Of a DNA stretch of 64,000 nt, positions 6,663 to 64,000 are shown in pieces. Source of the DNA: Candidatus Omnitrophota bacterium (lineage in GTDB: Bacteria > Omnitrophota > Gorgyraeia > Zapsychrales > Zapsychraceae); assembly GCA_020632495.1 (NCBI GenBank), contig JACKFL010000005.1, forward strand, positions 1,036,925 through 1,100,924, read 5' to 3'. Within the stretch, counting starts at the first letter, position 1. The number at the start of each line of letters is the position of its first letter. Position numbers and translations under genes: made by a program. The notes below the pieces were generated by a model. The model was not told the origin of the DNA and made no database searches. It saw only the letters and a program-made list of their open reading frames with translations.

Positions 6663-8513
6663 ATGACACAGAAGCAAGCCGAAACCTTTGAATACCAAGC
6701 CGAGATGAAGCAGCTGTTGCATCTCATCGTCCATTCCCTGTACACACACCCGGAAGTTTTCCTGCGCGAGCTGATTTCCAACGCCTCGGACGCTCTGAAC
6801 AAAGTCCGCTACCGTCAGCTCACCGACCAGGACCTGCTCGACAAGGACAAGGAACTGGCCATCCGCATCACGCTCGACGCGGAAAACAAGACGTTCAGCA
6901 TCGAAGACTGCGGGACCGGGATGACCAAGGACGAGCTGATCTCCAATATCGGGACGGTGGCCCGCTCCGGGACGCGCGAGTTCCTGCAGAAGTTGAAGGA
7001 AGACCAGAAGAACGCCGGCGATCTGATCGGCCAGTTCGGGGTCGGGTTTTATTCGGTGTTCATGGTCACCGATGAGGTCACCGTGGAGACACGCGCCGCG
7101 GACAAAGATTCGCAGGGTTATCGCTGGACATCCGCCGGCGAGGGCAGCTACACCGTCGAGGAGATCGACAAACCGGACCGCGGCACCCGGATTACCTTCA
7201 CGCTGAAGGACGACCACAAGGACTTTGCCGAACCCTTCATGATTAAGGAAGTGATCAAGAAGTACTCCAACTTCGCGGACTTTCCGATTTACGTCGGGGA
7301 AGACAAGGTCAATACGGTCGAAGCGATCTGGCGCAAGAGCGAAAAGGAAGTGAAAGACGAGGAGCGCAACGAATTCTACAAGTTCATCACCAACGACTAC
7401 GACGATCCGCTGGCGAGTACTCACCTTAACATCGAAGGGGCCGGGGCGTCGTTCAAGGCGCTGCTTTTTATCCCGCGGCGCGCGCCGTACGACCTGATGC
7501 GCACCCAGCAGCACAAGACGTTGCAGCTCTACACCAACAAGATCATGATCATGGACGACTGCAAGGACCTGCTGCCGGAATATCTGCAGTTCCTGCGCGG
7601 GGTCGTCGATACCAGCGACCTGCCGTTGAACGTGTCGCGTGAGGTGGTCCAGAAGACCCAGGCCATGGCCAAGATCAAGACGGCACTGACCGGAAAGGTC
7701 CTGCAGTGGCTCAAGCGCATGGCCAACAAAGACACTGAGACATTTCTGCAGTTTTATAAGACCTTCGGCCAGCTTTTCAAGTCGGGGCTTAATTCCGACT
7801 TTGCCAACCGCGACAAGCTGCTTGAACTGCTGCGCTTTGAGACCTCGACGCTGAAAGGCGGCGAGTTGACGTCGTTCAAGGACTATGTCGGCCGGATGAA
7901 GGAAGACCAGAAGGAGATTTACTATCTGACCGGCGACCACCGTGATCACGTGGAGCGCAATCCGAACCTCGAATACTTCCGCAAACACGACCTGGAGGTC
8001 CTGCTGTTGATCGACCCGGTCGACGCGTTTATCATCCCGGGCATCACGGAATACGACGGCAAGCCGGTCAAGGCCATCGACAAGGATGATCTGGAATTGC
8101 CCAAGGCCGCCGGCGATGATGAGAAGAAGGACGACAAACTGTCGGAGTCCCTGCTCGGGTTGTTCAAGGATACCCTGAAGGATAAGGTCGAGGACGTGAA
8201 GGTCTCCAAGCGCCTGGTCGACTCGGCCGTCACGCTGGTGACCGGCAAGGACGGCATGGACCGGCAGATGGAGCGGATGATGAAGATGATGGGCCAGGAC
8301 GCGCCCGCGGGCAAGCGCGTGATGGAGGTCAACATCGATCACCCGGTCTTAAAGAACCTGTCGCGCCGCTACTTAGCCAACGCCTCGGACCCGATGCTCA
8401 AAAAGTGCATCGTCCAGCTCTACGAAAGCGCCCAGCTGATGGACGGTGAACTCCCCAGCCGCGCCGATTACATCAACCGCATGATGGAGATCATGGAAGA
8501 AGCGACAAAATAA
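6663..8513 (+). CDS. htpG: Hsp90-family chaperone HtpG
   Basis: 616 aa. Motifs ELISNASDALNK and GQFGVGFYS (GHKL N-domain), full-length HtpG-like. Confidence 0.97.
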   Translation: MTQKQAETFEYQAEMKQLLHLIVHSLYTHPEVFLRELISNASDALNKVRYRQLTDQDLLDKDKELAIRITLDAENKTFSIEDCGTGMTKDELISNIGTVARSGTREFLQKLKEDQKNAGDLIGQFGVGFYSVFMVTDEVTVETRAADKDSQGYRWTSAGEGSYTVEEIDKPDRGTRITFTLKDDHKDFAEPFMIKEVIKKYSNFADFPIYVGEDKVNTVEAIWRKSEKEVKDEERNEFYKFITNDYDDPLASTHLNIEGAGASFKALLFIPRRAPYDLMRTQQHKTLQLYTNKIMIMDDCKDLLPEYLQFLRGVVDTSDLPLNVSREVVQKTQAMAKIKTALTGKVLQWLKRMANKDTETFLQFYKTFGQLFKSGLNSDFANRDKLLELLRFETSTLKGGELTSFKDYVGRMKEDQKEIYYLTGDHRDHVERNPNLEYFRKHDLEVLLLIDPVDAFIIPGITEYDGKPVKAIDKDDLELPKAAGDDEKKDDKLSESLLGLFKDTLKDKVEDVKVSKRLVDSAVTLVTGKDGMDRQMERMMKMMGQDAPAGKRVMEVNIDHPVLKNLSRRYLANASDPMLKKCIVQLYESAQLMDGELPSRADYINRMMEIMEEATK

Positions 8514-8522
8514 GAGCCTCCG

Positions 8523-8566
8523 GCCCGTCTGTTGAGGGATTATTACCCGGCAGACGGGCTTTTTTT
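8523..8566 (+). terminator. Rho-independent terminator after htpG
   Basis: Stem GCCCGTCTG (8523-8531) pairs with CAGACGGGC (8551-8559), followed by T7. Confidence 0.75.
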
Positions 8567-8584
8567 GTGCGTAACGCCACCTAA

Positions 8585-24081: not shown

Positions 24082-24714
24082 ATGAAGATCGCTGTCATCG
24101 GGACCGGCAACGTCGGGTCCATCCTCGGAACACGTCTGGCCCATCAGGGGCATGAGGTCATCTTCGGATCACGCGATCCGCGGGCCGCCAAGGTGGTGTC
24201 CGTGGTCCAGTCCGCCGGCCCGAACGCGCGGGCGGATGCAAATGCCGCCGCCGTGAAGTCCGCCGAGGTCATCATCCTGACCGTGCCGTACTCCGGTGCG
24301 GAAGAAACGATCAAAGGGCTCGGTCCCTTACAAGGCAAGATCCTGATCGACACCACCAACGCGTTACTGCCCGACTTGTCGGGTTTGTCGCTGCCGGCCG
24401 GGGAATCCGCCGGTGAAAATGTTGCCGGATGGGCAGCCGGGGCACGCGTGGTGAAGGCCTTCAACACCATCGGGACCAAGGTCATGGAGGATCCGGCATA
24501 CGGGGATGACCGGGCGCTTCTCTTAATATGCGGCGACAGCGCCGGGGCCAAGGCGACCGCCGCGGACTTGGCGGACGAATTGGGCTTTAATGTGGTCGAT
24601 GCCGGGCCGTTGTCAATGGCGCGTCATCTCGAATCGCTGGCCATGCTGTGGATCCAACTCGCTTTTGTACAGGGAAAGGGAACGGACTTTGCGTTGAAGA
24701 TCCTTACGCGCTGA
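24082..24714 (+). CDS. NADP oxidoreductase, coenzyme F420-dependent family (NpdG/Fno-like Rossmann protein)
   Basis: MKIAVIGTGNVGSILGTRLAHQGHEVIFGSRDP... The dinucleotide-binding GxGxxG sits at the N-terminus. The track start at 23995 is an extension. Confidence 0.8.
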   Translation: MKIAVIGTGNVGSILGTRLAHQGHEVIFGSRDPRAAKVVSVVQSAGPNARADANAAAVKSAEVIILTVPYSGAEETIKGLGPLQGKILIDTTNALLPDLSGLSLPAGESAGENVAGWAAGARVVKAFNTIGTKVMEDPAYGDDRALLLICGDSAGAKATAADLADELGFNVVDAGPLSMARHLESLAMLWIQLAFVQGKGTDFALKILTR

Positions 24715-24775
24715 TCCCGGTTGCGGCATCAGGCGGTGCTTGTCTAACTCCAAGGAAGTGTGTACAATAGCTGTC

Positions 24776-27145
24776 ATGTTTCGTCATGCTATCCTAAGTA
24801 TACTGATCGTAATGCTTTTCATGCCTGAGGCCGTCCTGGCAGCCGACCCGCCCACAGTGACTGTCGGGGTGGTGATTGACGGGCCGTGGAAGCGCAATAA
24901 TGAAATCTTTGAACTTTTGCGTTCCGAGGTCCACACTCTTACCGATGATGAGTTCGCGGTCCGCTTTCCCGCAGACAAGAGCCTCACGGCCGACTGGACC
25001 CGCGACGGTGTCTCCGCAGCCGTTGAGCGTTTGCTCAATGATCCCGGGGTCGATATAATCATCGCGCTGGGCGCGATCGCTTCAGACGACCTGGTCCATC
25101 GCGGACCGTTGCCCAAACCCGTCATAGCACCCTATATTCTGGATATCGAGTTGCAAAATGTCCCCCGGCAAGACGGTTCCAGCGGGGTAACCAACCTTTC
25201 CTATGTCACGTTTTCCACCCGTTTGCCGACCAGCATGACGACGTTCCATGAAGTCGTGGGATTTCATAAGCTGACTCTGATGACGAACACCTACGTCATT
25301 ACCGCCATTCCCCAGTTGAAGGACCGCATCCGTCAAATCGCCGGTTCGATCGGTATCGATGTTAGTATCGTACTCGTCGACGGTGCCGTTCAGGAGGCGC
25401 TCGCCGGTATCCCCCGCGGGACCGAAGCGGTATTTGTGGCTCCGCAGTTTCAGCTGGCGCCTGAAGAAGTCGATGAGCTGATCGCCGGGCTGATCGAACG
25501 CCGGCTGCCGTCGTTTTCAGGATTCGGCCGGTCGGAAGTGGAGCGGGGTATGATGGTCGGCCTCACGCAGACCGACTTTGACTTTCCGCGCATGGCCCGG
25601 CGCATCGCGCTCAACCTGCAGCGTATTTTGCTGGGCGAAAAACCCGAAGATATCCCGGTCGCCTTTGAAGAGGTCACCCAGCTGACCATCAATATGGAAA
25701 CGGCCCGTAAGGTCGGCACGTGGCCCAGTTGGGATATCATGCAGAAGGCCGAGCTGATCGGTGAGAATTATTTTGAATCAAAGGGGGAGTTGACGCTGGA
25801 AGAAGCCATTTCCGACGCGGTCGAAAAAAATCTGTCACTGATGGCCGGTTACAAGTCGGTTACGGCCGGGGCGGTGGATATCCGGCGTGCCTGGGCCACA
25901 CTGTTTCCGCAGGTCACGCTGGCCGGCCAATGGCGGAAGATCGACGAGGACCGCGCCAAGGCCAGCCTCGGTACGGCCCCGGAACGCACGGCCAATTCTT
26001 CAGCGACACTGACACAGATCCTGTTCAACGAAGAAGCCCTGGCAAATGTCGGGATACAAAAGCGTCTGCAGATATCCCGTGAGGAAGAATTTCGTCAGCT
26101 CAAACTGGATATCATCCAGGCCACCGCGATCACTTACTTTAATGTCCTGCGGGCCAAGATTCTGGAACGGATCCAGTTTGACAATCTGAAACTTTCCAAG
26201 GCCAACCTCGAACTGGCGGAGAAACGCGAATCCGTCGGACAGTCCGGATCGGCCGATGTTTACCGCTGGGAAAGTCAGATCGCCACCAACCGGCGGGATT
26301 TGCTGCAGGCCCAGGCGGACCGGCACAATGCCGAAATCGTCTTAAACGGGCTGCTGCACCGGCCGCTGGAAGATAATTATCAGCTGCGCGAGACGTCATT
26401 GGACGAACCGATGCTGTGGATCGACCGGGACCGGGTCATCCAGTACACCGACAATCCCTGGTCATTCCGTATTTTCCGGGATTTTATTGTCACCGACAGT
26501 CTGGAGAATACTCCCGGACTGCGGCAGTTGGAGGCGCTGATCAAGGCGAAGGATCGGCAGTTACGTTCCGCGAAGCGGGATTTCTGGCTTCCTGATATCA
26601 CGTTTCAGGCTAATGTCACCGATAATTTTTATGAAGACGGGGCGGGGCAGCCCGCTGCGCCGGTCAAGAATGACCGGGATGTGTCGGCCGTCGTCCAGGC
26701 CAGTTATCCGCTGTTTGAAGGCGGCGACCGGGTGGCCGAGGTCAAACAGTTGAAGGAAGAACTGGCGCAGTTGACTCTGCAACGGGATGCGTTAATGGAA
26801 AGTATCGAACAGGATATCCGGACATCACTGCGGGATGTCGGGGCCTCACACGGGTCCATTCGGCACGCGCGCAAATCGGCCGCGGCGGCCGGACAGAACC
26901 TCGAGCTGATTACCGACGCGTACGCCCGAGGGTCGGTGTCAATCATCGAATTGCTCGACGCGCAGAACGCGTCCTTGGTCGCGGACCAGGTGTCGGCCAA
27001 TGCTGTTTACGATTTTATGATCGACTTTATGGTTATGCAACGCAATATGGGTTATTACATGTTCATGTTGAACGAAGAAGAGCGCCGGGAGTGGTTGGAA
27101 CGGCTCGCCGCTTTCTTCTCCGACCGCGGGATCACGGTCGAATAG
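24776..27145 (+). CDS. TolC-like outer-membrane efflux protein fused to an N-terminal ABC-substrate-binding-like (type I PBP, COG2984-like) domain
   Basis: Signal peptide MFRHAILSILIVMLFMPEAVLA. The N-terminal ~330 aa end with ...ALNLQRILLGEKPEDIPVAFEEVTQLTINMETARKVG, typical of the ABC_sub_bind family. The C-terminal ~450 aa carry the two TolC/OEP repeats (LTLEEAISDAVEKNLSL..., ...IELLDAQN). Confidence 0.8.
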   Translation: MFRHAILSILIVMLFMPEAVLAADPPTVTVGVVIDGPWKRNNEIFELLRSEVHTLTDDEFAVRFPADKSLTADWTRDGVSAAVERLLNDPGVDIIIALGAIASDDLVHRGPLPKPVIAPYILDIELQNVPRQDGSSGVTNLSYVTFSTRLPTSMTTFHEVVGFHKLTLMTNTYVITAIPQLKDRIRQIAGSIGIDVSIVLVDGAVQEALAGIPRGTEAVFVAPQFQLAPEEVDELIAGLIERRLPSFSGFGRSEVERGMMVGLTQTDFDFPRMARRIALNLQRILLGEKPEDIPVAFEEVTQLTINMETARKVGTWPSWDIMQKAELIGENYFESKGELTLEEAISDAVEKNLSLMAGYKSVTAGAVDIRRAWATLFPQVTLAGQWRKIDEDRAKASLGTAPERTANSSATLTQILFNEEALANVGIQKRLQISREEEFRQLKLDIIQATAITYFNVLRAKILERIQFDNLKLSKANLELAEKRESVGQSGSADVYRWESQIATNRRDLLQAQADRHNAEIVLNGLLHRPLEDNYQLRETSLDEPMLWIDRDRVIQYTDNPWSFRIFRDFIVTDSLENTPGLRQLEALIKAKDRQLRSAKRDFWLPDITFQANVTDNFYEDGAGQPAAPVKNDRDVSAVVQASYPLFEGGDRVAEVKQLKEELAQLTLQRDALMESIEQDIRTSLRDVGASHGSIRHARKSAAAAGQNLELITDAYARGSVSIIELLDAQNASLVADQVSANAVYDFMIDFMVMQRNMGYYMFMLNEEERREWLERLAAFFSDRGITVE

Positions 27146-27159
27146 GGACGGAGGATAAT

Positions 27160-28245
27160 ATGCGTAAAGAATACGCGGGTGTCATCATCGCGGCGGTCCT
27201 CATATCCGGTTGCGTTCAGCCGGAACCGCCGCAGGAGGTCATCCGGCCGGTACGGGTTGAGCGGGTATATAAAACGGACGGTGCGCGGGTGCGTACATTC
27301 TCGGGCGTCGCCTCGGCCGGCGTGGAGTCCAAACTGAGTTTTAAAGTCGGCGGGACCGTCGAGAAAAAGATGGTCAATGTCGGCGATCTGGTGAGGCAGG
27401 GCGATTTGATTGCTCAGCTCGATCCCCAGGACTTTTCGCTTCAGGCGCAGGAAGTCGAGGCCCAGATCGCCCAGGCGGAGGCGCAGGCGCGCAATACCAA
27501 ATCGAACTACGAACGGGTCCGCGCTCTGTACGAGAATAACAATGCGTCCAAAAGCGACCTGGACCAGGCACGCGCGGCCTATGAATCGTCCCAGGCATCG
27601 CTGCAGGCCCTGGCCAATACCCGCGAATTGGCGCAGCGTCAGATCGGGTATACAAAATTGCGCGCGCCCCGCGACGGGCATATCGCTTCGGTAGAGATAG
27701 ATGTGAACGAAAACGTCGGTCCCGGTCAGACAATTGTCGTCCTTACCAGCGATGAGGATATTGATGTCGAGGTGATGGTTCCGGAAAATCTCATTACGCG
27801 GGTTCGCAAAGGAGACATTGTTGAAGTGAGTTTTGTGGCCCGGCCGGACCGGATTTATCAAGGGCAGGTCACCGAGGTCGGCGTGTCGTCCGGAAGTTTC
27901 GCGACGACGTATCCGGTTACGGTGAATGTCGCGTCGGCGACGGGAGATGTCCGCTCCGGTATGGCCGCGGAAGTGGCCTTTCATTTTGTGGATAAAGGCA
28001 GCCGTGACCACTGGGTCGTCCGTTCGTCGGCGGTCAATGAGGACGCGCAGGGCCGGTTTGTCTACATAGCCGAACCCGCGGAAGGCGAGGCGGGTATGGC
28101 CACGGTGACACGCAGGGATGTCAGTGTGGGAAGCCTCACCGATGACGGTATTGAAATTCTGAGCGGTCTGCGTGACGGGGACCGGGTGATCACCGCCGGC
28201 GTGAGTAAGGTCCAGCCGGATCAAAAGGTGCGGTTGCTGCAATGA
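27160..28245 (+). CDS. RND efflux periplasmic adaptor (MFP/HlyD_D23 family) lipoprotein
   Basis: MRKEYAGVIIAAVLISGC lipobox, a coiled-coil hairpin (AQIAQAEAQARN...) and a beta-barrel region. GGAGGA Shine-Dalgarno. ATGA overlap with the next gene. Confidence 0.9.
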   Translation: MRKEYAGVIIAAVLISGCVQPEPPQEVIRPVRVERVYKTDGARVRTFSGVASAGVESKLSFKVGGTVEKKMVNVGDLVRQGDLIAQLDPQDFSLQAQEVEAQIAQAEAQARNTKSNYERVRALYENNNASKSDLDQARAAYESSQASLQALANTRELAQRQIGYTKLRAPRDGHIASVEIDVNENVGPGQTIVVLTSDEDIDVEVMVPENLITRVRKGDIVEVSFVARPDRIYQGQVTEVGVSSGSFATTYPVTVNVASATGDVRSGMAAEVAFHFVDKGSRDHWVVRSSAVNEDAQGRFVYIAEPAEGEAGMATVTRRDVSVGSLTDDGIEILSGLRDGDRVITAGVSKVQPDQKVRLLQ

Positions 28246-31200
28246 ATATAACCCGTCTGGCCCTGGAAAAGACACGGGTCACCGTGGTATCCCTGCTGCT
28301 GCTGATCGCCGCGGGGATCAGCGCCTACCAGGATATGCCGCGCAACGAAGATCCCGGTTTTGTCATCCGCACCGCCCTGGTGCGCACGCCGTTTCCCGGC
28401 GCCAGTCCGGAACGCGTTGAGCAGCTTGTTACCGACAAGCTGGAAAAAGTCATCCAGGAAATCCCCCAGATCGATTACGTCTCCAGCGAATCCAAGACCG
28501 GCGTCTCGCTGATATTTGTCAATATCAAGGAAAGTTACAGCGAGATGCGGCCGATCTGGGACGATTTGCGCCGCAAGGTGGACAGCGCGCGCAGCGAGCT
28601 TCCCGAGGGTATCCGCGGTCCGTTTGTGGACGACGAATTCGGCGATGTCTTCGGGATTATCATCGGACTGACGGGCGAAGGTTACGACTATGCGGAACTG
28701 AAGAAAATTGCCGACGAGGTGCGTGACGAACTCCTCACGCTGGGGGAAGTGGCCAAGGTTGAGATTCAGGGGGCCCAGGAGGAGCGGATCTTCGTCGAAT
28801 TTGATAACGCGCGGCTGGCGGAAACCGGAATCTCACCGGGCCAGTTGCAGACGATCCTGGAAAACCGCAACATCATCATACCCGGCGGTGAGGTGTTTAC
28901 CGAGGCCGAGCAGATTACCCTGGAACCCACCGGCAATTTCGAGTCGGTTGAGGATCTCCGCAAGACCGTCGTCAAACTTCCCGGTTCGACCGACGTCGTG
29001 TATTTACAGGATTTGGTCGATATCAAGCGCGGTTACATCGATCCGGCCAAATCCAAATTTCACTATAACGGCCGCCCCGGATTATCGATCAGTATCAATA
29101 TGCGCGCGGGAGGCAATGTCCTGACGCTCGGCGAACAGGTCCGGGACAAGCTGGCCTTCTTCCTGGAGAATTATCCGATCGGCATCGACTTTAACGCCTT
29201 CGCTTTTCAGCCGGAGCATGTTGACAAAAAGATCGCCGACTTTGAGGGCAACATTGTTCAAGCCATCCTGATCGTTTTGGCGGTGATGCTGCTCACCCTG
29301 GGACTGCGGACCGGACTCGTTGTGGCCTCATTAATCCCGATGGCGATGGTCACGGCGATCCTGGTGATGTCGGTCTTCGATATCGGGCTTGATCAGATGT
29401 CGCTGGCCTCCTTGATCATCGCGCTGGGGATGTTGGTCGACAACGCGATCGTGATGTCTGAATCGATCATGACCCAGATGGAAGAGGGCAAGCCCGCCCG
29501 CCAGGCGGCAATCGATTCCGCCAACGAATTGAAGATCCCGTTGCTGACGTCCTCTTTGACCACCGCCGCGGCCTTTCTGCCGATCTTTTTGGCAGAGTCG
29601 TCGACGGGCGAATACACCGCGCCGCTCTTTAAGGTCGTGACCATAACCCTGTTATCCTCCTGGCTGCTTGCCCTGACCATGACGCCCTTATTGTGTGTGC
29701 GGTATCTGAAAGTCAAGAAGGGTCAACAAGACAGCCTGGACACACCGTTTTACCGGCGTTACCGCGGGGTGTTATTGGCATTATTAAGGCATCCTTGGCT
29801 GAGCACGGCCGGCGTGGCCGTGATTTGGTGGGTAGCCATGCAGGGGTTTCAATTCGTTCCCAGCATTTTCTTTCCGCCGAACGATAAGGCGATCATGCAA
29901 ATGGAAATCGCGTTGCCGATCGGTACGCCGCTGGCCCGCACCGAACAGGTCGTCTCGGAAATCGAGTCGTATATCGCGGCCGATTTGATGGCCGGTGAGG
30001 GAAGGGCGGGCATAACCGAATTCGCCAGTTACATCGGGGTGGGCGCCCCGCGGTTTGTTCTGAATTACAATCCCGAACAAAGCAGTCCGGAAGTGGCTTT
30101 TATCCTGATGAACACCTCCGACCGCGATGTTATCGACACCGAACTCGTACCCGCGTTGGACAGCTTTGTTTTCCAGAATTACCCCGAGGTGACCGCGCGC
30201 ACGACACCGTTGCAAATGGGTTCGCCGGTCGACAGTCCGATTGAGATCCGGGTTTCCGGCAAGGATAAAGAGCGCATCTTCAGCCTGGTAGAGTCCATCA
30301 AGGCGCGTATGGCCCGGACACCGGGGATCAAAAATATCAAAGATGACTGGGGAATGCAGACCAAGAAACTTTTGGTCAAGGTCGATCAACCGCGGGCGCT
30401 GCGGGCGGGTTTGACCAGCCGCGACATCGCGGTGTCTTTGCAAACTATCCTCAGCGGCATTCAGACAACGGAGTACCGGGAGGGGGACCAGGCGATCCCG
30501 GTCACGCTGCGTTCGTCCGCGGCCGACCGCCAGGACATCGGGAAGCTCGAAGGGCATCAAATCTATGTGCAATCGTCGGGACGTAACGTGCCGCTCAATC
30601 AAGTCGCCGACATTGAAATCGTCTGGCAGCCGGCCAAGATCCTGCGGCGGGACCGGCTGAAGACGGTCGCCGTTCAGGCCGACGCTGCGGCCGGGGCCAA
30701 TTCCCAGGAACTGGCACGTGAACTGAATGCCTGGCTGAGAGAGGAAAGCCGCGCCTGGCCGTTGGGGTACAAGTATGAACTCGGCGGGGAGGTGGAATCC
30801 TCCGGAAAGGCCAACAAGTCAATCGGGGCCAAACTCCCCATCGCGGCGCTCATCATCATCCTTTTGCTGGTCGGCCAGTTCAATTCGATTCGCCGGCCGC
30901 TGATCATCATGATCACCATCCCGTTGGGATTGATCGGTGTGGTCGTCGGTCTGCTGGTGGCGCGCAGTTATTTCGGTTTTATGACCCTGCTCGGCGTGAT
31001 ATCATTGGCGGGGATCGTCATCAATAACGCGATCGTGCTGCTGGACCGGATCCGCATTGAAATCGATGACAACGGGATGTCACCGCAGGAGGCGATCGTG
31101 TCGTCGGCCCAAAAACGGCTGCGGCCGATTCTGCTGACCACGGCGACCACTGTCGGCGGTTTGATCCCGTTGTGGCTGGGCGGCGGGCCGATGTGGGAGC

Positions 31201-31310
31201 CGATGGCCATCTCGATTATTTTCGGACTGATCTTCGCGACCGTACTCACCCTGGGTGTGGTCCCGGTCCTCTACGCGTTATTCTTCCGCGTAAGGTTTGA
31301 ACACCAATAG
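28242..31310 (+). CDS. RND efflux permease (AcrB/HAE1-like)
   Basis: 1,022 aa with 12-TM RND topology and typical motifs (ALGMLVDNAIVMSE, GIVINNAIVLLD). Confidence 0.95.
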   Translation: MNITRLALEKTRVTVVSLLLLIAAGISAYQDMPRNEDPGFVIRTALVRTPFPGASPERVEQLVTDKLEKVIQEIPQIDYVSSESKTGVSLIFVNIKESYSEMRPIWDDLRRKVDSARSELPEGIRGPFVDDEFGDVFGIIIGLTGEGYDYAELKKIADEVRDELLTLGEVAKVEIQGAQEERIFVEFDNARLAETGISPGQLQTILENRNIIIPGGEVFTEAEQITLEPTGNFESVEDLRKTVVKLPGSTDVVYLQDLVDIKRGYIDPAKSKFHYNGRPGLSISINMRAGGNVLTLGEQVRDKLAFFLENYPIGIDFNAFAFQPEHVDKKIADFEGNIVQAILIVLAVMLLTLGLRTGLVVASLIPMAMVTAILVMSVFDIGLDQMSLASLIIALGMLVDNAIVMSESIMTQMEEGKPARQAAIDSANELKIPLLTSSLTTAAAFLPIFLAESSTGEYTAPLFKVVTITLLSSWLLALTMTPLLCVRYLKVKKGQQDSLDTPFYRRYRGVLLALLRHPWLSTAGVAVIWWVAMQGFQFVPSIFFPPNDKAIMQMEIALPIGTPLARTEQVVSEIESYIAADLMAGEGRAGITEFASYIGVGAPRFVLNYNPEQSSPEVAFILMNTSDRDVIDTELVPALDSFVFQNYPEVTARTTPLQMGSPVDSPIEIRVSGKDKERIFSLVESIKARMARTPGIKNIKDDWGMQTKKLLVKVDQPRALRAGLTSRDIAVSLQTILSGIQTTEYREGDQAIPVTLRSSAADRQDIGKLEGHQIYVQSSGRNVPLNQVADIEIVWQPAKILRRDRLKTVAVQADAAAGANSQELARELNAWLREESRAWPLGYKYELGGEVESSGKANKSIGAKLPIAALIIILLLVGQFNSIRRPLIIMITIPLGLIGVVVGLLVARSYFGFMTLLGVISLAGIVINNAIVLLDRIRIEIDDNGMSPQEAIVSSAQKRLRPILLTTATTVGGLIPLWLGGGPMWEPMAISIIFGLIFATVLTLGVVPVLYALFFRVRFEHQ

Positions 31311-31348
31311 TTTGGCGAACAACGTGTGCCACTAACGGAACGGTTGAC

Positions 31349-31954
31349 GTGGACAATATTCAAATCAATCAATGGCGGCGGCTTGAGTATCATGACCCGG
31401 AGCGGGTGCTGCGGCATCTTGACGATATTCAGACCGCGATTGCCGACAGCGCGATCGACGATAAAATCAAGAATCTGCGGACCAATACGCTTAAGGCCCA
31501 TAAAGAAGGACGCGAGGCGGCGCTGTTTTGCCATGGCTTGGGTAAGTCCGTGCTGAACCGCAAGGTCTATTTCAGCCTTCATGAAAAAGATGATTACGAT
31601 TTTATCGCCTGCTGGCAGGACCAGGCGGCACTGGTCTTTACGCCGGTCCAGCTAAAGGAAGTCGTCCCCCTGCAGATCAATCCGGAAACGACTTTGATGG
31701 ACGAGATCGCCAAGCTCGCCAAATACGCGGACTCGCAAAACTTGGTCGTGGCGGTTTATCTCAACCGGACCGGCCGGTTGAACGTCAAAGAAATTATCGT
31801 TCCGGATCTTAATATCGCGGAGTTATGGTTTTTCGGGGCCGTGAGTGAGGACCGGTCACGGTGGTTTTTGATGGGCGATCTGCTCGGCGAGAATCATTAT
31901 TATGAATTCGATTACCCCAACGGGGAAGAGCAGCGGTTAGCGGATAGCGGTTAG
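31349..31954 (+). CDS. Hypothetical protein
   Basis: 201-aa ORF (GTG start) in the gene series. No family recognised. The last 7 codons and the stop lie inside the AGCGGWT heptamer array. Confidence 0.55.
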   Translation: MDNIQINQWRRLEYHDPERVLRHLDDIQTAIADSAIDDKIKNLRTNTLKAHKEGREAALFCHGLGKSVLNRKVYFSLHEKDDYDFIACWQDQAALVFTPVQLKEVVPLQINPETTLMDEIAKLAKYADSQNLVVAVYLNRTGRLNVKEIIVPDLNIAELWFFGAVSEDRSRWFLMGDLLGENHYYEFDYPNGEEQRLADSG

Positions 31955-31966
31955 CGGATAGCGGTG
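31932..31966. repeat. Tandem heptamer array AGCGGTT AGCGGAT AGCGGTT AGCGGAT AGCGGTG (solo arm)
   Basis: Five consecutive 7-mers read directly. The same AGCGGATAGCGGTGA string occurs in inverted form at 42935-42955. Confidence 0.9.
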
Positions 31967-32057
31967 AATGAAGAGCAGGGGGATGGTGGTTGAAGTCATC
32001 ACATGACCGACAATAGTTATGGGGGTGAGCCCCTACTGTTTAATTAGGAGAGTCGAT

Positions 32058-32771
32058 ATGGCATCTGCACATGGAGCGAAGATCAAGATCAGAAAGGCGC
32101 ACGACCGCGGGCACGCGGACCACGGTTGGCTGAATTCCTGGCACACGTTTTCCTTCGCGGACTACCACGATCCCGCGCATATGGGATTCCGCAGCCTGCG
32201 GGTGATCAATGACGACACCGTGCAGGGCGGACAGGGCTTCGGAACGCACCCGCACCGCGACATGGAGATCATTTCCTATGTCATCGACGGGGCGCTGGAG
32301 CACAAAGACAGCATGGGCAACGGTTCGGTGCTCCGCGCCGGTCATATCCAGCGGATTACCGCGGGGACCGGGATCTCCCACAGCGAGTTCAACCATTCCG
32401 CCACGGCCCCGGTACATTTCCTGCAGATCTGGATCATTCCCGATCAACGCGGACTTAAACCGTCGTACGAAGAGTTCCAGGTGCGGTCCGCCGGCGGCGG
32501 TATGTGTCTGGTCGCCTCACCCGACGGGGCTGAAGGCAGCGTGACCGTTCACCAGGACGCGCGGCTGTACTTCGGACGGCTGGCGGAAGATGAAACCGTC
32601 ACCCATACCACATCGGTCGAACGCGGGGTGTGGGTGCAGGTGGTCAAAGGCGAGCTGACCGTCGCCGGGCAACGGCTGACGGCTGGGGACGGTATGAGTC
32701 TGGAGCAGGTGGAGGATATCGCGCTTGAGGCGGGGGGAGTAGTGGATTTTTTATTGTTTGATTTAGCATAA
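32058..32771 (+). CDS. Pirin-family protein (bicupin, quercetinase-like)
   Basis: RGHADHGWLNSWHTFSFADYHDP...GFGTHPHRDMEIISYVIDGALEHKDSMGN is the classic pirin N-terminal cupin. Confidence 0.92.
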   Translation: MASAHGAKIKIRKAHDRGHADHGWLNSWHTFSFADYHDPAHMGFRSLRVINDDTVQGGQGFGTHPHRDMEIISYVIDGALEHKDSMGNGSVLRAGHIQRITAGTGISHSEFNHSATAPVHFLQIWIIPDQRGLKPSYEEFQVRSAGGGMCLVASPDGAEGSVTVHQDARLYFGRLAEDETVTHTTSVERGVWVQVVKGELTVAGQRLTAGDGMSLEQVEDIALEAGGVVDFLLFDLA

Positions 32772-32775
32772 ATCA

Positions 32776-32879
32776 GGGATGAGGGACGGGGGGCGAAGGA
32801 CTAGGGATAATCGCTACGCATGTTGTCATATTTGTATGCCTGAATCTCGTCCCTAATCCCTAGTCCCTCGTCCCACCCC
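32776..32879. repeat. Heptamer-array inverted-repeat element (GGGAYNN arms)
   Basis: Left arm GGGATGA GGGACGG ... GGACTA GGGATAA. Right arm ...CCCTAATCCCTAGTCCCTCGTCCCACCCC. An 11-bp exact complement joins GGACTAGGGAT (32798-32808) and ATCCCTAGTCC (32856-32866). The element starts 5 nt after the pirin stop. Confidence 0.8.
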
Positions 32880-32920
32880 ATCGTATTTATACTTTAACCA
32901 ATACCCGAACACTGTATAAC

Positions 32921-35187: not shown

Positions 35188-35391
35188 ATATCGCGAGGCA
35201 AACAACCCGTCTCAATGCTTGAGACATTCGGTCTTTCGATATTGTCTCGAAAATTCGATGATTCGAGATTAGAAATATGATCATCCGGTCCGCTTCCGGC
35301 CAAAATAAGCCCGATGGCGAGTGCCTTGCGTAACGGCGGGTTTTCCGCTATGATGGGTGCTTAATATTCGATATTTGTCCACCGCTGGTGG

Positions 35392-35564
35392 AAGTTCGTG
35401 ATAAGTGATGCGGGATAAGGGATACGAACAGTTTGCCTTCAAGACACACATAATTTCCGGGAAATAAAATATGCAAACAGCTGACAACGGGCCGGCGACC
35501 TACGGTCATCCCCCGGCAGCAGACTGTTCATATCACATATCACTTATCCCATATCCCGACTCGG
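35392..35564. repeat. Heptamer-array inverted-repeat element (GKGATAN arms), same family as 63003-63197
   Basis: Left arm GTGATAA GTGATGC GGGATAA GGGATAC. Inner stem CGAACAGT/ACTGTTC. Right arm ATATCAC ATATCAC TTATCCC ATATCCC GACT. Ends 18 nt before tRNA-Arg. Confidence 0.85.
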
Positions 35565-35582
35565 TACATACTGAAACACCAC

Positions 35583-35654
35583 GTCCCCGTAGCTCAACGG
35601 ATAGAGTACTGGCCTCCGGAGCCAGAGGTGCAGGTTCGATTCCCGCCGGGGACG
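35583..35654 (+). tRNA. tRNA-Arg (anticodon CCG)
   Basis: Hand fold. Acceptor GTCCCCG/CGGGGAC. D-arm GCTC...GAGT. Anticodon stem CTGGC/GCCAG with loop CTCCGGA. 4-nt variable loop. T-arm GCAGG-TTCGATT-CCCGC with one A-C mismatch. No encoded CCA. Confidence 0.8.
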
Positions 35655-35730
35655 CTTTTATGACAGGCACCGTTTTTACGCGGTGCCTGTCTTGTTTACG
35701 CCTGACAGGCGCGCCCGGTCTTTCCATTCC

Positions 35731-41753: not shown

Positions 41754-42775
41754 TCCGCCCGCGAACCGCTGTTGCCGCCGGGCTCATTATCCTTTTCCTG
41801 ACCGCGACCGCGGTCAAATCCTCCGACCATCACCCGGCCGTCACCGTAATCACCGAGACGGCTGGCGCGTGGTTCGATTCCCTGGACAACCGCCAGCAGG
41901 TTGCCGTGTCGTTTCCCTTTGATGACCGGGAACGCCTGCGCTGGCATTATTTTCCACACAGCGGCGCCGGATTGACGCTGCGCGAGATGAGCGAAGAACA
42001 GCGCGGCCTGGCCGCGGACATGATCCGCGCGGTCCTCTCCACGGCCGGGGCGCACAAGGTGGAAGAGATCATGGCCCTGGAGACGGTCCTTCAGCAGCTG
42101 GAGGGGAGTTCCCCGCGTTACCGAGATCCGTTGCGCTACGCCTTTACACTCTACGGGCAGCCCGGCGAACCACCCTGGGGGTGGCGTGTCGACGGGCATC
42201 ACCTGGCCGTCAATGTCACCGTGGCCACGGAGCGGGACATCGTTCTGACGCCGCTCTTTTTGGGGAGCAATCCGGCCAAGGTCCCGCGCGGGCCGTTTGC
42301 CGGCCAACAGATTCAGAAAGATGAGGCCGCTCGTGCCCTGACCCTCGTTAACAGTCTGAACGCCGAACAGCGCGGGCGCGCGGTCCTGCGCGACCGGTCC
42401 GTCGGTAATATCCTCGCCGGGCCGGGGCAACTCGACCGGGTCCGGGAATTCGAAGGGATCCCTTATACGGACCTGACCGACGATCAGCGCCGGCAACTGA
42501 TGGAACTGATTGAAGTCTATGTGGGCACCGCCCGCGACGACATCGGCCAGCCGTATCTGGAGCTTATCCGCGCGGACGTGCCGGAGTTGTATTTCGCCTG
42601 GGCCGGCGGGACGCAGGAGGGGGACGCCTACTACTACCGCATCCACGGCCCGCGCGTCCTCATTGAGTTCGACAATACGCAGAATAACGGCAACCATATC
42701 CACAGTGTGTGGCGGGATCCTCTCAATGATTTCGGCCGGGATGTCTTGCGGGAGCATTACTTGCAAGAGCATTGA
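41750..42775 (+). CDS. DUF3500 domain-containing protein
   Basis: WRVDGHHLAVNVTV...YYYRIHGPRVLIEFDNTQNNGNHIHSVWRDPLNDFG. ATGA overlap with the upstream stop. N-terminal MIRPRTAVAAGLIILFLTATAV. Confidence 0.85.
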   Translation: MIRPRTAVAAGLIILFLTATAVKSSDHHPAVTVITETAGAWFDSLDNRQQVAVSFPFDDRERLRWHYFPHSGAGLTLREMSEEQRGLAADMIRAVLSTAGAHKVEEIMALETVLQQLEGSSPRYRDPLRYAFTLYGQPGEPPWGWRVDGHHLAVNVTVATERDIVLTPLFLGSNPAKVPRGPFAGQQIQKDEAARALTLVNSLNAEQRGRAVLRDRSVGNILAGPGQLDRVREFEGIPYTDLTDDQRRQLMELIEVYVGTARDDIGQPYLELIRADVPELYFAWAGGTQEGDAYYYRIHGPRVLIEFDNTQNNGNHIHSVWRDPLNDFGRDVLREHYLQEH

Positions 42776-42780
42776 ATACT

Positions 42781-42955
42781 AGCGGTTAGCGTTTAGCGGA
42801 CAGCGGCGAGTGCTCAGGTCGCGGCATTCTGGGATTAGGGAATAGCGGATAGTGGCTGTCGAGGGAGGAGGGCCCCGCAGCTCACTAAATACTGATCCCA
42901 CCGCCAACTAATCACTGATCCCTTACTAATCTCTATCCGCTCACCGCTATCCGCT
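42781..42955. repeat. Two-tier nested heptamer-array inverted-repeat element (outer AGCGGNN, inner GGGATTA-type)
   Basis: Left arm AGCGGTT AGCGTTT AGCGGAC AGCGGCG ... GGGATTA GGGAATA GCGGATA. Right arm ...TGATCCC...CCTTACT AATCTCT ATCCGCT CACCGCT ATCCGCT. Starts 6 nt after the DUF3500 stop. Confidence 0.85.
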
Positions 42956-43001
42956 GAATCTTAGTGCCTGTGGCATCCCGATAAGATATAATGAGTACAT
43001 C

Positions 43002-56496: not shown

Positions 56497-56609
56497 GGGA
56501 TTGGTGATAAGGGATTAGGGGATGGACTGTTGCTTCCGGATATATTCCGACCCAAGTCCCCAGATGAGCACGCTCGGTCTGAATCCCGTATCTCCAATCC
56601 TATATTACT
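56497..56609. repeat. Heptamer-array inverted-repeat element (GGGATTG GTGATAA GGGATTA GGGGATG ... AATCCCG TATCTCC AATCCTA)
   Basis: Arms read directly. Lies between the terminator and the Anbu operon. Confidence 0.7.
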
Positions 56610-56639
56610 AACAGGACCTTCAACCAATCCGTACACAAG

Positions 56640-60680: not shown

Positions 60681-60916
60681 CGTGTATGCGTATATGCGTA
60701 TATGCGTGTATGCGTTTATGCGTTTATGCGTGGTTGGACCGGTACTTCAAGAACATTAGGGGATTGGGGTATCGGAGGAGGTAGGCATAGCGTTAATTAG
60801 ATCATCTGTGTAACGGTTGGCGGTATTCCATGCTCCGTTATTTCTTTGCGCCATCAGGAAACAGATCCCGCCCACCAACCCGCATAAACGCTTACACACA
60901 TAAACGCATATACCCA
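60681..60916. repeat. Nested inverted-repeat element with octamer array (CGTRTATG x6) and inner GGGGATT-type heptamers
   Basis: Left arm CGTGTATG CGTATATG CGTATATG CGTGTATG CGTTTATG CGTTTATG, then ...TTAGGGGATTGGGGTATCGG. Right arm ...CCCGCCCACCAACCC GCATAAACG CTTACACA CATAAACG CATATACC. Starts 1 nt after the transglutaminase stop. Confidence 0.85.
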
Positions 60917-63002: not shown

Positions 63003-63197
63003 GAAGTCGGGATATGGGATACGGGATAAGGGATACGTGGTTTGCCCGTTATAAAAAGACCTCCATATGTGCCGACGATCTTGTGGTATCATGAAACCAA
63101 ACTGTTCGTATCACATATGGTTCGACTTCGCTCACCATCTGTAATTATCATCAAATTGAATCCCGAGCGGAGTCGAGGGATCCCGTATCCCGACTAG
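63003..63197. repeat. Heptamer-array inverted-repeat element (GGGATAN x4), homologous to 35392-35564, plus a small second hairpin
   Basis: GAAGTC GGGATAT GGGATAC GGGATAA GGGATAC G...AAACTGTTC GTATCAC ATATGG TTCGACTTC, then GAATCCCG...AGTCGAGGGATCCCGTATCCCGACT. Shares GGGATAAGGGATACG and ACTGTTCRTATCACATAT with the 35.4 kb copy. Confidence 0.85.
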
Positions 63198-63923: not shown

Positions 63924-64000
63924 GGGATTGGGGAAAGGCGCTATGATTGCAGGAGGGGTGAGGAGCTCAACGCTTTGTAGGGACTAGGGATTGGGGACTA
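63924..64000. repeat. Heptamer arrays GGGATTG GGGAAAG ... GGGACTA GGGATTG GGGACTA, truncated by the window end
   Basis: Read directly. GGGACTAGGGATT is also the reverse complement of part of the right arm at 32854-32866. Confidence 0.7.

Follow-up and report, generated by a model that had tools for sequence, protein, structure and literature searches.

A 64,000-nucleotide (nt) stretch of the genome of a Candidatus Omnitrophota bacterium (assembly GCA_020632495.1; G000 in what follows), called the window here, carries at positions 35392–35564 an inverted repeat whose arms are tandem heptamers, placed immediately ahead of a tRNA-Arg gene. What is this element, what does it belong to, and how does it come to sit in front of a tRNA? 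Coordinates without a prefix are positions in the window; those prefixed C15, C16 and C1 refer, unless another genome is named, to contigs of the same genome. The answer developed below, to which we give a probability of roughly 0.55, is that the element is a rapidly turning over member of the GATA family that lacks a gene but is related to cassettes carrying a PF05635 gene, and that it occupies the leader of the tRNA-Arg transcript.

The inverted repeat was confirmed, each arm combining four tandem heptamers (G[GT]GATAN) with an inner GAACAGTTTGC motif. From the left, a degenerate outer end, AAGTTC (35392–35397; GAGTC in the consensus of the GATA-family copies compared), leads into the heptamers GTGATAA GTGATGC GGGATAA GGGATAC (35398–35425), seen both in the sequence and by the repeat finder, and then into the inner family motif GAACAGTTTGCC (35426–35437), which is common to GATA- and GATT-flavour copies. 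After a unique centre (35438–35517), the right half follows with its own inner motif, AGCAGACTGTTC (35518–35529; consensus GCAAACTGTTC among the family copies compared), the units ATATCAC ATATCAC TTATCCC ATATCCC (35530–35557; again from the sequence and the repeat finder), which are complementary to G[GT]GATAT/A units, and the outer end GACTCGG (35558–35564; GACTC in the consensus of GATA-family copies). The inner stem pairs CGAACAGT (35425–35432) with ACTGTTC (35523–35529), and the repeat finder returned arms of 41 nt with 76% complementarity at a spacing of 82 nt. With 28 nt of heptamers plus an inner motif of 8–12 nt, the arms form terminal inverted repeats of about 28 bp. Heptamer arms, inner stem and unique centre are as an earlier note on this DNA had described them, with the centre now measured at 80 nt, and the 18-nt gap that it gave between the element and the tRNA gene is also correct (element end at 35564, tRNA start at 35583). 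A whole-genome search found no other copy of the centre, the element holds no PF05635 open reading frame (ORF), and a weak promoter-like site in the centre (35441–35470) was not above chance.

The element is one member of a population that extends across the genome. In the full 3.73-Mb assembly (19 contigs, 55% G+C), Tandem Repeats Finder (TRF), with arrays counted at no fewer than 2.8 copies, detected 126 arrays of period 7, along with 6, 48, 40 and 5 arrays of periods 5, 6, 8 and 10, respectively. By a rough gene caller, 109 of the 126 period-7 arrays were intergenic, compared with an intergenic share of 12% for the genome. An inverted partner within 300 nt accompanied 92 of 121 merged intergenic arrays, compared with 2/121 in a reversed-not-complemented control, so that the dispersed family of inverted elements proposed in the earlier note exists genome-wide, with 73 (~75) paired elements in about eight sequence flavours: TTCGAWA (22), AGTGATG (12), AGCGGWT (11), AGGGAYN/GATT (10), GATA (8), GTAATGN (4), GATC (2) and CGTAAGA (2). 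An octamer flavour, CGTATATG, comes in addition to these. Four units were the modal array length (68/121 arrays), and in every clear case the G-rich arm was 5' on both strands, i.e. the orientation was convergent. Arrays were clustered along the chromosome, with 49 in C15 1.0–1.4 Mb and further clusters in C15 0–0.2 Mb and C16 0.8–1.0 Mb; one 100-kb bin contained 27 arrays, and megabase-sized stretches were nearly array-free.

The bias towards positions just after stop codons, noticed earlier within the window, likewise holds across the genome. Sixty-five of the 73 elements lie between co-directional genes, against a share of 72% among all intergenic regions that are 80 nt or longer. In the co-directional set (n = 64), 48 elements were closer to the upstream stop and 16 to the downstream start (binomial p = 8e-5), the median distances being 17.5 nt after the stop and 68 nt to the start, with 42/64 no more than 30 nt from the stop. 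The 35392 element is an exception to this bias, lying ~205 nt past the stop of the preceding ORF and directly 5' of the tRNA gene.

Within this population, the arms of the 35392 element matched about ten loci in G000 and about a dozen in its congener G002, with no match in any other genus among 30 relatives. Aligned by eye, the GATA copies share the layout GAGTC-(G[GT]GATAN)x4-GAACAGTTTGC ... GCAAACTGTTC-(NTATC[AC]C)x3-4-GACTC around unrelated centres of 17 nt to about 400 nt. Unrelated centres were seen in 39 elements and similar ones only in the TTCGAWA and AGCGGWT families, and other flavours have inner motifs of their own.

The GATA family has a single long copy (482 nt, C16:1114608–1115089), and it is this copy that links the arrays to a protein, a connection that the earlier note did not make. 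Its arms, GAGTC-(G[GT]GATAN)x4-GAAC...AAACTGTTC-(NTATC[AC]C)x4-GACTC, are the same as those of the gene-less copies, and between them a 117-amino-acid protein is encoded on the minus strand. This protein belongs to PF05635 (23S_rRNA_IVP; Pfam E = 1.2e-39) and to the four-helix-bundle family TIGR02436 (E = 4.5e-38), and its nearest relative in the PDB is 2GSC, the five-chain structure of Xanthomonas campestris XCC0516. PF05635-like genes number seven in the genome, and six of them have inverted arrays on both sides, with a different flavour for each gene (GATA, AGTGATG, AGCGGWT, GTAATGN, TTCGAWA and the octamer). The terminal 70 nt of each cassette match 2–18 other 150-nt bins of the genome but never another cassette; each gene-bearing copy therefore has a gene-less set of its own, and the 35392 element belongs to the GATA set. 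Three armed cassettes (GATA, AGTGATG and TTCGAWA) stand within 10 kb at C16:1114608–1124420, an arrangement kept in G002 (C20:185.7–195.3 kb of that genome); orthologues of all three armed genes occur there, and a GATC-armed gene is found in a second congener, G004.

The partnership of gene and array recurs in other lineages. PF05635 was present in 97 of 151 sampled Omnitrophota genomes. In other Omnitrophota, 28 of 29 PF05635 genes, at as many loci, had flank-to-flank inverted repeats scoring at least 24 (controls scored 14–23, with one at 31), and the dominant period was 7 in 26 of these 28. Among 16 genomes of other phyla, selected for holding GATA arrays, 15 contained PF05635, whereas only one of the 14 standard control genomes did. 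Inverted arrays flanked 25 of the 27 PF05635 genes in the selected genomes, with period 7 in 18 cases and mostly period 8 in the remainder. The flanked genes come from Cyanobacteria, Acidobacteriota, Proteobacteria, Chloroflexota, Planctomycetota and Bacteroidota, and the genomes include Chamaesiphon, Nostoc, Dolichospermum, Pyrinomonadaceae and other Acidobacteriota, a gammaproteobacterial and a Burkholderiales metagenome-assembled genome, Mesorhizobium, Chloroflexaceae, Pirellulaceae, Saprospiraceae and Balneolaceae. Pooled over the other Omnitrophota and the other phyla, 53 of 56 PF05635 genes are flanked by inverted 7- or 8-mer arrays. As for the arrays alone, GKGATNN x4 was found in 24 of 401 Omnitrophota genomes, with most in G000 (24), in a survey whose reversed control pattern (TAGKGNN) is another heptamer flavour and not a clean control; G[GT]GATAN x4 arrays are present in many phyla. 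The inner motif GAACAGT was absent beside the GATA arrays of other phyla, and the specific family is therefore lineage-restricted and the design widespread.

Comparison with G002 indicates how quickly the elements change. This genome is collinear with the window at 90–96% identity, the flanks of the elements are 90–100% identical, and the BLAST alignment breaks exactly at elements (31951–31991, 32769–32910, 35376–35566 and 42764–42978). At the 35392 site the two genomes agree fully in the flanks, up to about 35356 and once more beyond about 35566; in the stretch enclosed, G002 carries GTGATCA GTGAAAA GTGATCT GTGATCA ... GATCAC TGATCAC CGGTCAC TGATCAC around a different centre, an element of GTGATCN flavour and equal design. 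Elsewhere in the window, three sites are replaced or partly changed in G002 and one (56497) is conserved, and among 19 further sites, reached through flank queries, 10 are conserved, 8 replaced or strongly diverged (5 with a clear change of flavour) and 1 empty in G002. About 40% of the orthologous sites, including 35392, hold a different element in G002, and 23 of the 24 sites compared are occupied in both species: element sites stay occupied while their occupants change. Conserved elements differ by arm indels of 7, 14, 15 and 17 nt, roughly whole units, and nested 'TCGAC' hairpins resembling repetitive extragenic palindromic (REP) sequences, inserted in G000 (51 and 91 nt), are absent at the same sites of G002. 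In the G002 assembly, two element sites fall at contig ends (its C4/C1 and C23/C6) and one at a run of N (its C14:~75.3 kb), which suggests that heptamer hairpins break short-read assemblies.

Why an insert should persist at this particular place may be read from its transcriptional context. The tRNA-Arg gene (anticodon CCG) occupies 35583–35655 on the plus strand according to ARAGORN and Rfam (RF00005, 64.6 bits; the only Rfam match in the window), and the terminator scan placed a canonical intrinsic terminator 3' of it on the same strand (35662–35691). Upstream of the element, a promoter-like TTGCGT-17 nt-TATGAT on the plus strand (35326–35354), recognised by reading the sequence and from the G002 alignment, probably drives the tRNA-Arg transcript; it was omitted by the promoter scan because its -35 hexamer matches at only 3/6 positions. 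The motif stands at the 3' end of a block (35300–35356) that is 100% identical in G002, the alignment remaining invariant to about 35356 and then diverging at approximately the expected transcription start. We infer that the primary tRNA-Arg transcript starts from this conserved promoter and includes the element in its 5' leader, where an insert would be tolerated because the leader would be removed during tRNA maturation. Four tRNA loci in the genome have an element immediately 5', among them tRNA-Arg and one in an rRNA operon spacer: there, a heptamer hairpin of AGCGGWT flavour whose loop is 6 nt long (C16:557057–557115) lies in the 16S–tRNA-Ile spacer, 16 nt 5' of tRNA-Ile. A genome from a different Omnitrophota family likewise has an inverted heptamer element (GTGAAAC/GGGATAC types) immediately ahead of a tRNA gene (G309:C9:77100–77600).

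How might a family of gene-less copies be sustained? In the mechanism that we propose, the long copy would supply in trans a cognate pentameric four-helix-bundle protein that recognises the heptamer arms, possibly with one heptamer per protein subunit; this protein, and not a classical transposase, would maintain or spread the family, and the element itself would be a selfish or near-neutral insert and not a terminator. Given the correlation of unit flavour with protein lineage, the arms of 4–5 units and the pentameric fold, recognition of the array by the protein appears to be the most economical hypothesis. Put generally, PF05635 pentamers would be sequence-specific partners of tandem heptamer arrays, each lineage with its own 7-mer and about one unit per subunit, and the cassette would maintain or spread its gene-less family in trans. 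This general form is tentative, and we would put the odds against it. The cassette proteins also gave weak matches to bAvd/DivGenRetAVD (E = 1e-6 to 6e-11), all under the curated cut-offs. The Avd protein of diversity-generating retroelements is a pentameric four-helix-bundle partner that handles nucleic acid; unlike the setting of Avd, the present genome has no reverse transcriptase.

A number of observations pull in the other direction. No PF05635 gene was adjacent to GATA arrays in 525 kb surveyed around 80 arrays from many phyla, which, together with the absence of GAACAGT there, means that most arrays are gene-less and that the families are lineage-specific. Target-site duplications were seen neither at 10 GATA copies nor at the filled/empty pair at C16:281994. 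The long copies encode only the PF05635 protein, with no cognate transposase gene, and the proposed heptamer binding or DNA movement by a four-helix-bundle protein is hypothetical. The genome contains no match to the reverse transcriptase family PF00078, on which ground retro-mobility was rejected, and its sole Y1-transposase-like gene (PF01797, weak; C16:348087–348410) is not associated with heptamers; it is flanked instead by AT-rich 'GTACTATATAA' repeats and conserved as a single copy in G002, and mobilisation by a REP-associated tyrosine transposase (RAYT) or of IS200 type was likewise discarded. The 35392 element is gene-less with a unique centre, whereas copy-and-paste families of miniature inverted-repeat transposable elements (MITEs) keep similar interiors. 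Its RNA fold does not stand out (z = -1.6 and -1.3), and arm complementarity is barely above that of unit-shuffled arms (mean z = 0.82; 31/42 positive; 3/42 individually significant), indicating that selection for a hairpin is weak. The apparent replacement at 35392 could also be accelerated divergence in situ, as the two alleles are ~60–68% identical, by a hand count from the alignment rather than a computed value, and both have 4 units per arm. Finally, that 23/24 sites are filled in both species is also compatible with the host requiring a hairpin of some kind there.

This last point leads to the strongest of the alternatives, which we nevertheless regard as unlikely: that the elements are host-beneficial RNA hairpins at gene 3' ends or in leaders, protecting upstream mRNA from 3'-exonucleases or attenuating read-through as in the REP elements and bacterial interspersed mosaic elements (BIMEs) of enterics, with the hairpin kept and its sequence free to vary. 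Such a role would suit the median position 17.5 nt after stops, the 65/73 elements between co-directional genes, the filling of 23/24 orthologous sites in both species even with a different element, and the symmetric design, which reads equally from either strand. It is harder to reconcile with right arms that are not followed by a U-tract in a genome, and a window, that has canonical terminators; with unexceptional fold energies and arms that barely covary; and with the 35392 copy, which is 5' of a tRNA and not 3' of a coding gene. It also leaves the PF05635-bearing copy of each flavour unexplained. The intrinsic terminator, one of the roles raised in the earlier note, was rejected at 35392, where the right arm is followed by GACTCGGTACATACTG and no U-tract, the terminator scan was empty, the fold is not exceptional and canonical terminators lie nearby.

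A processing element in the manner of 23S rRNA intervening sequences (IVSs), in which RNase III cuts the stem out of the transcript and so makes insertion into transcribed spacers harmless, is improbable. PF05635 genes were first found in such IVSs, which carry ORFs in Leptospira and in Coxiella burnetii, where RNase III excises the S23p-encoding IVS, whose terminal stem measures 28 bp (Warrier et al. 2016, PMC4990558). ORF-bearing IVSs have been proposed in the literature to be selfish or once mobile. The arms described here have the same 4 x 7 = 28 nt, the family's long copy likewise places a PF05635 protein inside terminal inverted repeats of ~28 bp, and the elements, like the IVSs, lie in transcribed non-coding RNA spacers or helices, including an rRNA operon spacer. 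However, RNase III was not detected in G000, G002 or G004, in which PF14622 and PF00636 were negative and no ORF contained an ERLEFLGD-type signature. PF00636 was found in 61 of 101 sampled Omnitrophota genomes and absent from 40/101, concentrated in this class, and many families of the class lack RNase III yet have PF05635 cassettes. In addition, the 35392 element has no ORF and stands outside 23S rRNA, unlike IVSs in helix 25 or 45, and the 23S gene of the genome (about C16:557.8–560.7 kb) contains no array.

Slightly less probable still is a G-quadruplex or i-motif repeat acting as DNA or RNA, or an array for a nucleoid protein, as proposed for the GGGNATC repeats of Xanthomonas and Nostoc and the 'global regulator' sites of Geobacter. 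The preference for four units would match the four G-tracts required by a quadruplex, a point made in PMC4692102, and G-tract-rich flavours do exist (GGGATAN, AGGGACT). As a unifying principle it fails, since only 14/121 arrays have at least four G3/C3 tracts, the commonest flavours (TTCGAWA, AGTGATG and AGCGGWT) are incapable of forming a quadruplex, and the arms at 35392 have two GGG tracts each, short of four. A pure mutational by-product, i.e. heptamer microsatellites arising from polymerase slippage without any element identity, is the least credible account: congeners do differ by roughly unit-sized indels (7, 14, 15 and 17 nt), and PMC4692102 reports a widespread heptamer excess in prokaryotes, but slippage cannot give inverted partners (92/121 vs 2/121), an invariable convergent orientation, family-specific non-repeat end motifs or cognate gene-bearing copies. 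A telomere-fusion-like origin of the convergent G-rich arrays was also rejected, as the families have defined non-repeat ends.

The reading of the element as a gene-less relative of PF05635 cassettes can be set against systems already in print. The earlier note took the repeats for an independent, undescribed system, which does not hold, because arrays of the same design have been published for Xanthomonas, Nostoc and Geobacter (PMC4692102, PMC2700814) and occur in many phyla. In Rehm et al. (2015, PMC4692102), the Xanthomonas and Nostoc heptamers have about 4 units, are about 90% intergenic, mostly between aligned ORFs, and form convergent inverted pairs, with a mean distance of 28 nt to the closer of the flanking ORFs, whichever way that ORF points; Geobacter metallireducens has elements of four and five heptanucleotides (PMC2700814). 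The elements described here resemble the inverted heptamer repeats of Xanthomonas (GGGAATC) and Nostoc (GGGGAYT) and the Geobacter elements in having tandem 7-mers mostly four times over, in being about 90% intergenic and near a flanking ORF (here the upstream stop), and in their aligned-ORF setting, frequent convergent inverted pairs and length variation among close relatives. They differ in the presence of about eight unrelated units in one genome, most of them not capable of forming a G-quadruplex, in conserved non-repeat end motifs, in six families with a PF05635-bearing copy, a link not made in the portions of those papers available to us, and in the host phylum, Omnitrophota.

The description as MITE-like, also offered in the earlier note, survives in part. 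Short, non-coding elements with terminal inverted repeats, multiple dispersed copies, a single longer version that has these ends and carries a gene, and polymorphism by presence/absence and replacement are all as in MITEs and their autonomous partners; unlike in MITEs, there is no target-site duplication, the long copy encodes a 117-amino-acid four-helix-bundle protein and no transposase, the interiors are mostly unrelated and the arms are microsatellite arrays. With REP/BIME elements and their RAYT genes, they share the form of intergenic palindromic repeats after stops between co-directional genes, with a presumed mobilisation in trans by a single-copy gene, but they have no GTAG/CGTC head, their arms are arrays of 28–45 nt and not single palindromes of 20–40 bp, and the Y1-like gene is not flanked by elements. 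The short tandemly repeated repetitive (STRR) sequences of heterocystous cyanobacteria are also tandem intergenic heptamers of patchy phylogenetic distribution. Their unit sequences differ from those found here, and the host here is not a cyanobacterium, the earlier judgement that the window is not cyanobacterial in content being borne out by its Omnitrophota genome. The TAACTGA repeats of Beggiatoaceae, a further case of tandem intergenic heptamers with patchy distribution, are arranged in direct orientation a short way 5' of start codons and hardly ever occur in inverted form (MacGregor 2015, PMC4679880), unlike the inverted, mostly post-stop elements of G000. Full-text literature searches returned no paper that joins heptamer arrays with PF05635 genes outside rRNA. 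What is new is the occurrence of cognate gene-less families in one genome, the lack of RNase III, and the replacement of elements at the same sites between sister species.

The other seven loci that the earlier note assigned to one principle all exist, with qualifications for three of them. The AGCGGWT array on the plus strand over the stop codon of its upstream gene (31932–31965) is single, with no clear partner; the element at 56497–56610 is a weak one of GATT/GATA type, 3' of an intrinsic terminator and kept in G002 with scattered substitutions only; and that at 60681–60900 is made of octamers (CGTATATG), the flavour of the arms of the PF05635 cassette at C16:787043–787405. Just past a stop codon, 32776–32875 is of AGGGAYN flavour, and its orthologous position in G002 is taken by an element of GTGTGCT/AGTGATG flavour. 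The AGCGGWT-flavour element at 42781–42955 starts at a stop codon and has a textbook GATA-family element at its orthologous site in G002. A second GATA-family copy in the window (63003–63197) hosts a nested REP-like 'TCGAC' hairpin in its right arm, and an AGGGAYT-flavour element (63924–64000) runs beyond the window end to a partner arm at C15:1100985–1101019.

Further differences between the two species and further repeats were recorded alongside. In the intergenic region that contains a canonical intrinsic terminator in G000 (8513–8583), G002 has a different inverted-repeat element, and two segments of the window, 1255–2640 (1.4 kb) and 24706–31350 (6.6 kb), have no counterpart in the collinear G002 contig. 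Another hairpin family, REP-like and with the core CTCGACTCCGCTC...GAGCGAAGTCGAA has about 309 half-site matches genome-wide and is nested inside heptamer elements, for instance at 63100–63180, C15:124925–124990, C15:644300–644360 and C15:651010–651100. Contig C1 (4.9 kb) starts and ends in heptamer arrays (C1:1–23, GTTGTCA; C1:4588–4935, GGGCGAA/GGGCAAA with an inverted partner), and the small contigs, C1 included, gave no Rfam match.

As a single locus, the 35392 element is ordinary; its value lies in belonging to a genome that offers six protein–repeat pairs. The four-helix-bundle proteins of 23S rRNA intervening sequences form a very large family with solved structures and, to our knowledge, no known function. 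Tandem heptamers, for their part, are among the commonest unexplained periodic repeats of bacterial genomes, and their non-coding hairpins have appeared in print as no more than curiosities; this locus and its genome tie them through shared arms to the PF05635 family, flavour by flavour. The elements thrive in a lineage without RNase III, which removes the standard explanation for the tolerance of such stems in transcripts. If the partnership between PF05635 proteins and arrays is real, it would constitute a class of autonomous and non-autonomous mobile elements without a known transposase, integrase or reverse transcriptase, and would explain much of the bacterial heptamer excess as well as the 23S rRNA intervening sequences. 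The relation between protein and heptamer is now directly testable, protein by protein, as binding to its own heptamer and as movement or protection of the hairpin, with six cognate pairs side by side in G000 and a sister species in which elements are swapped at the same sites.

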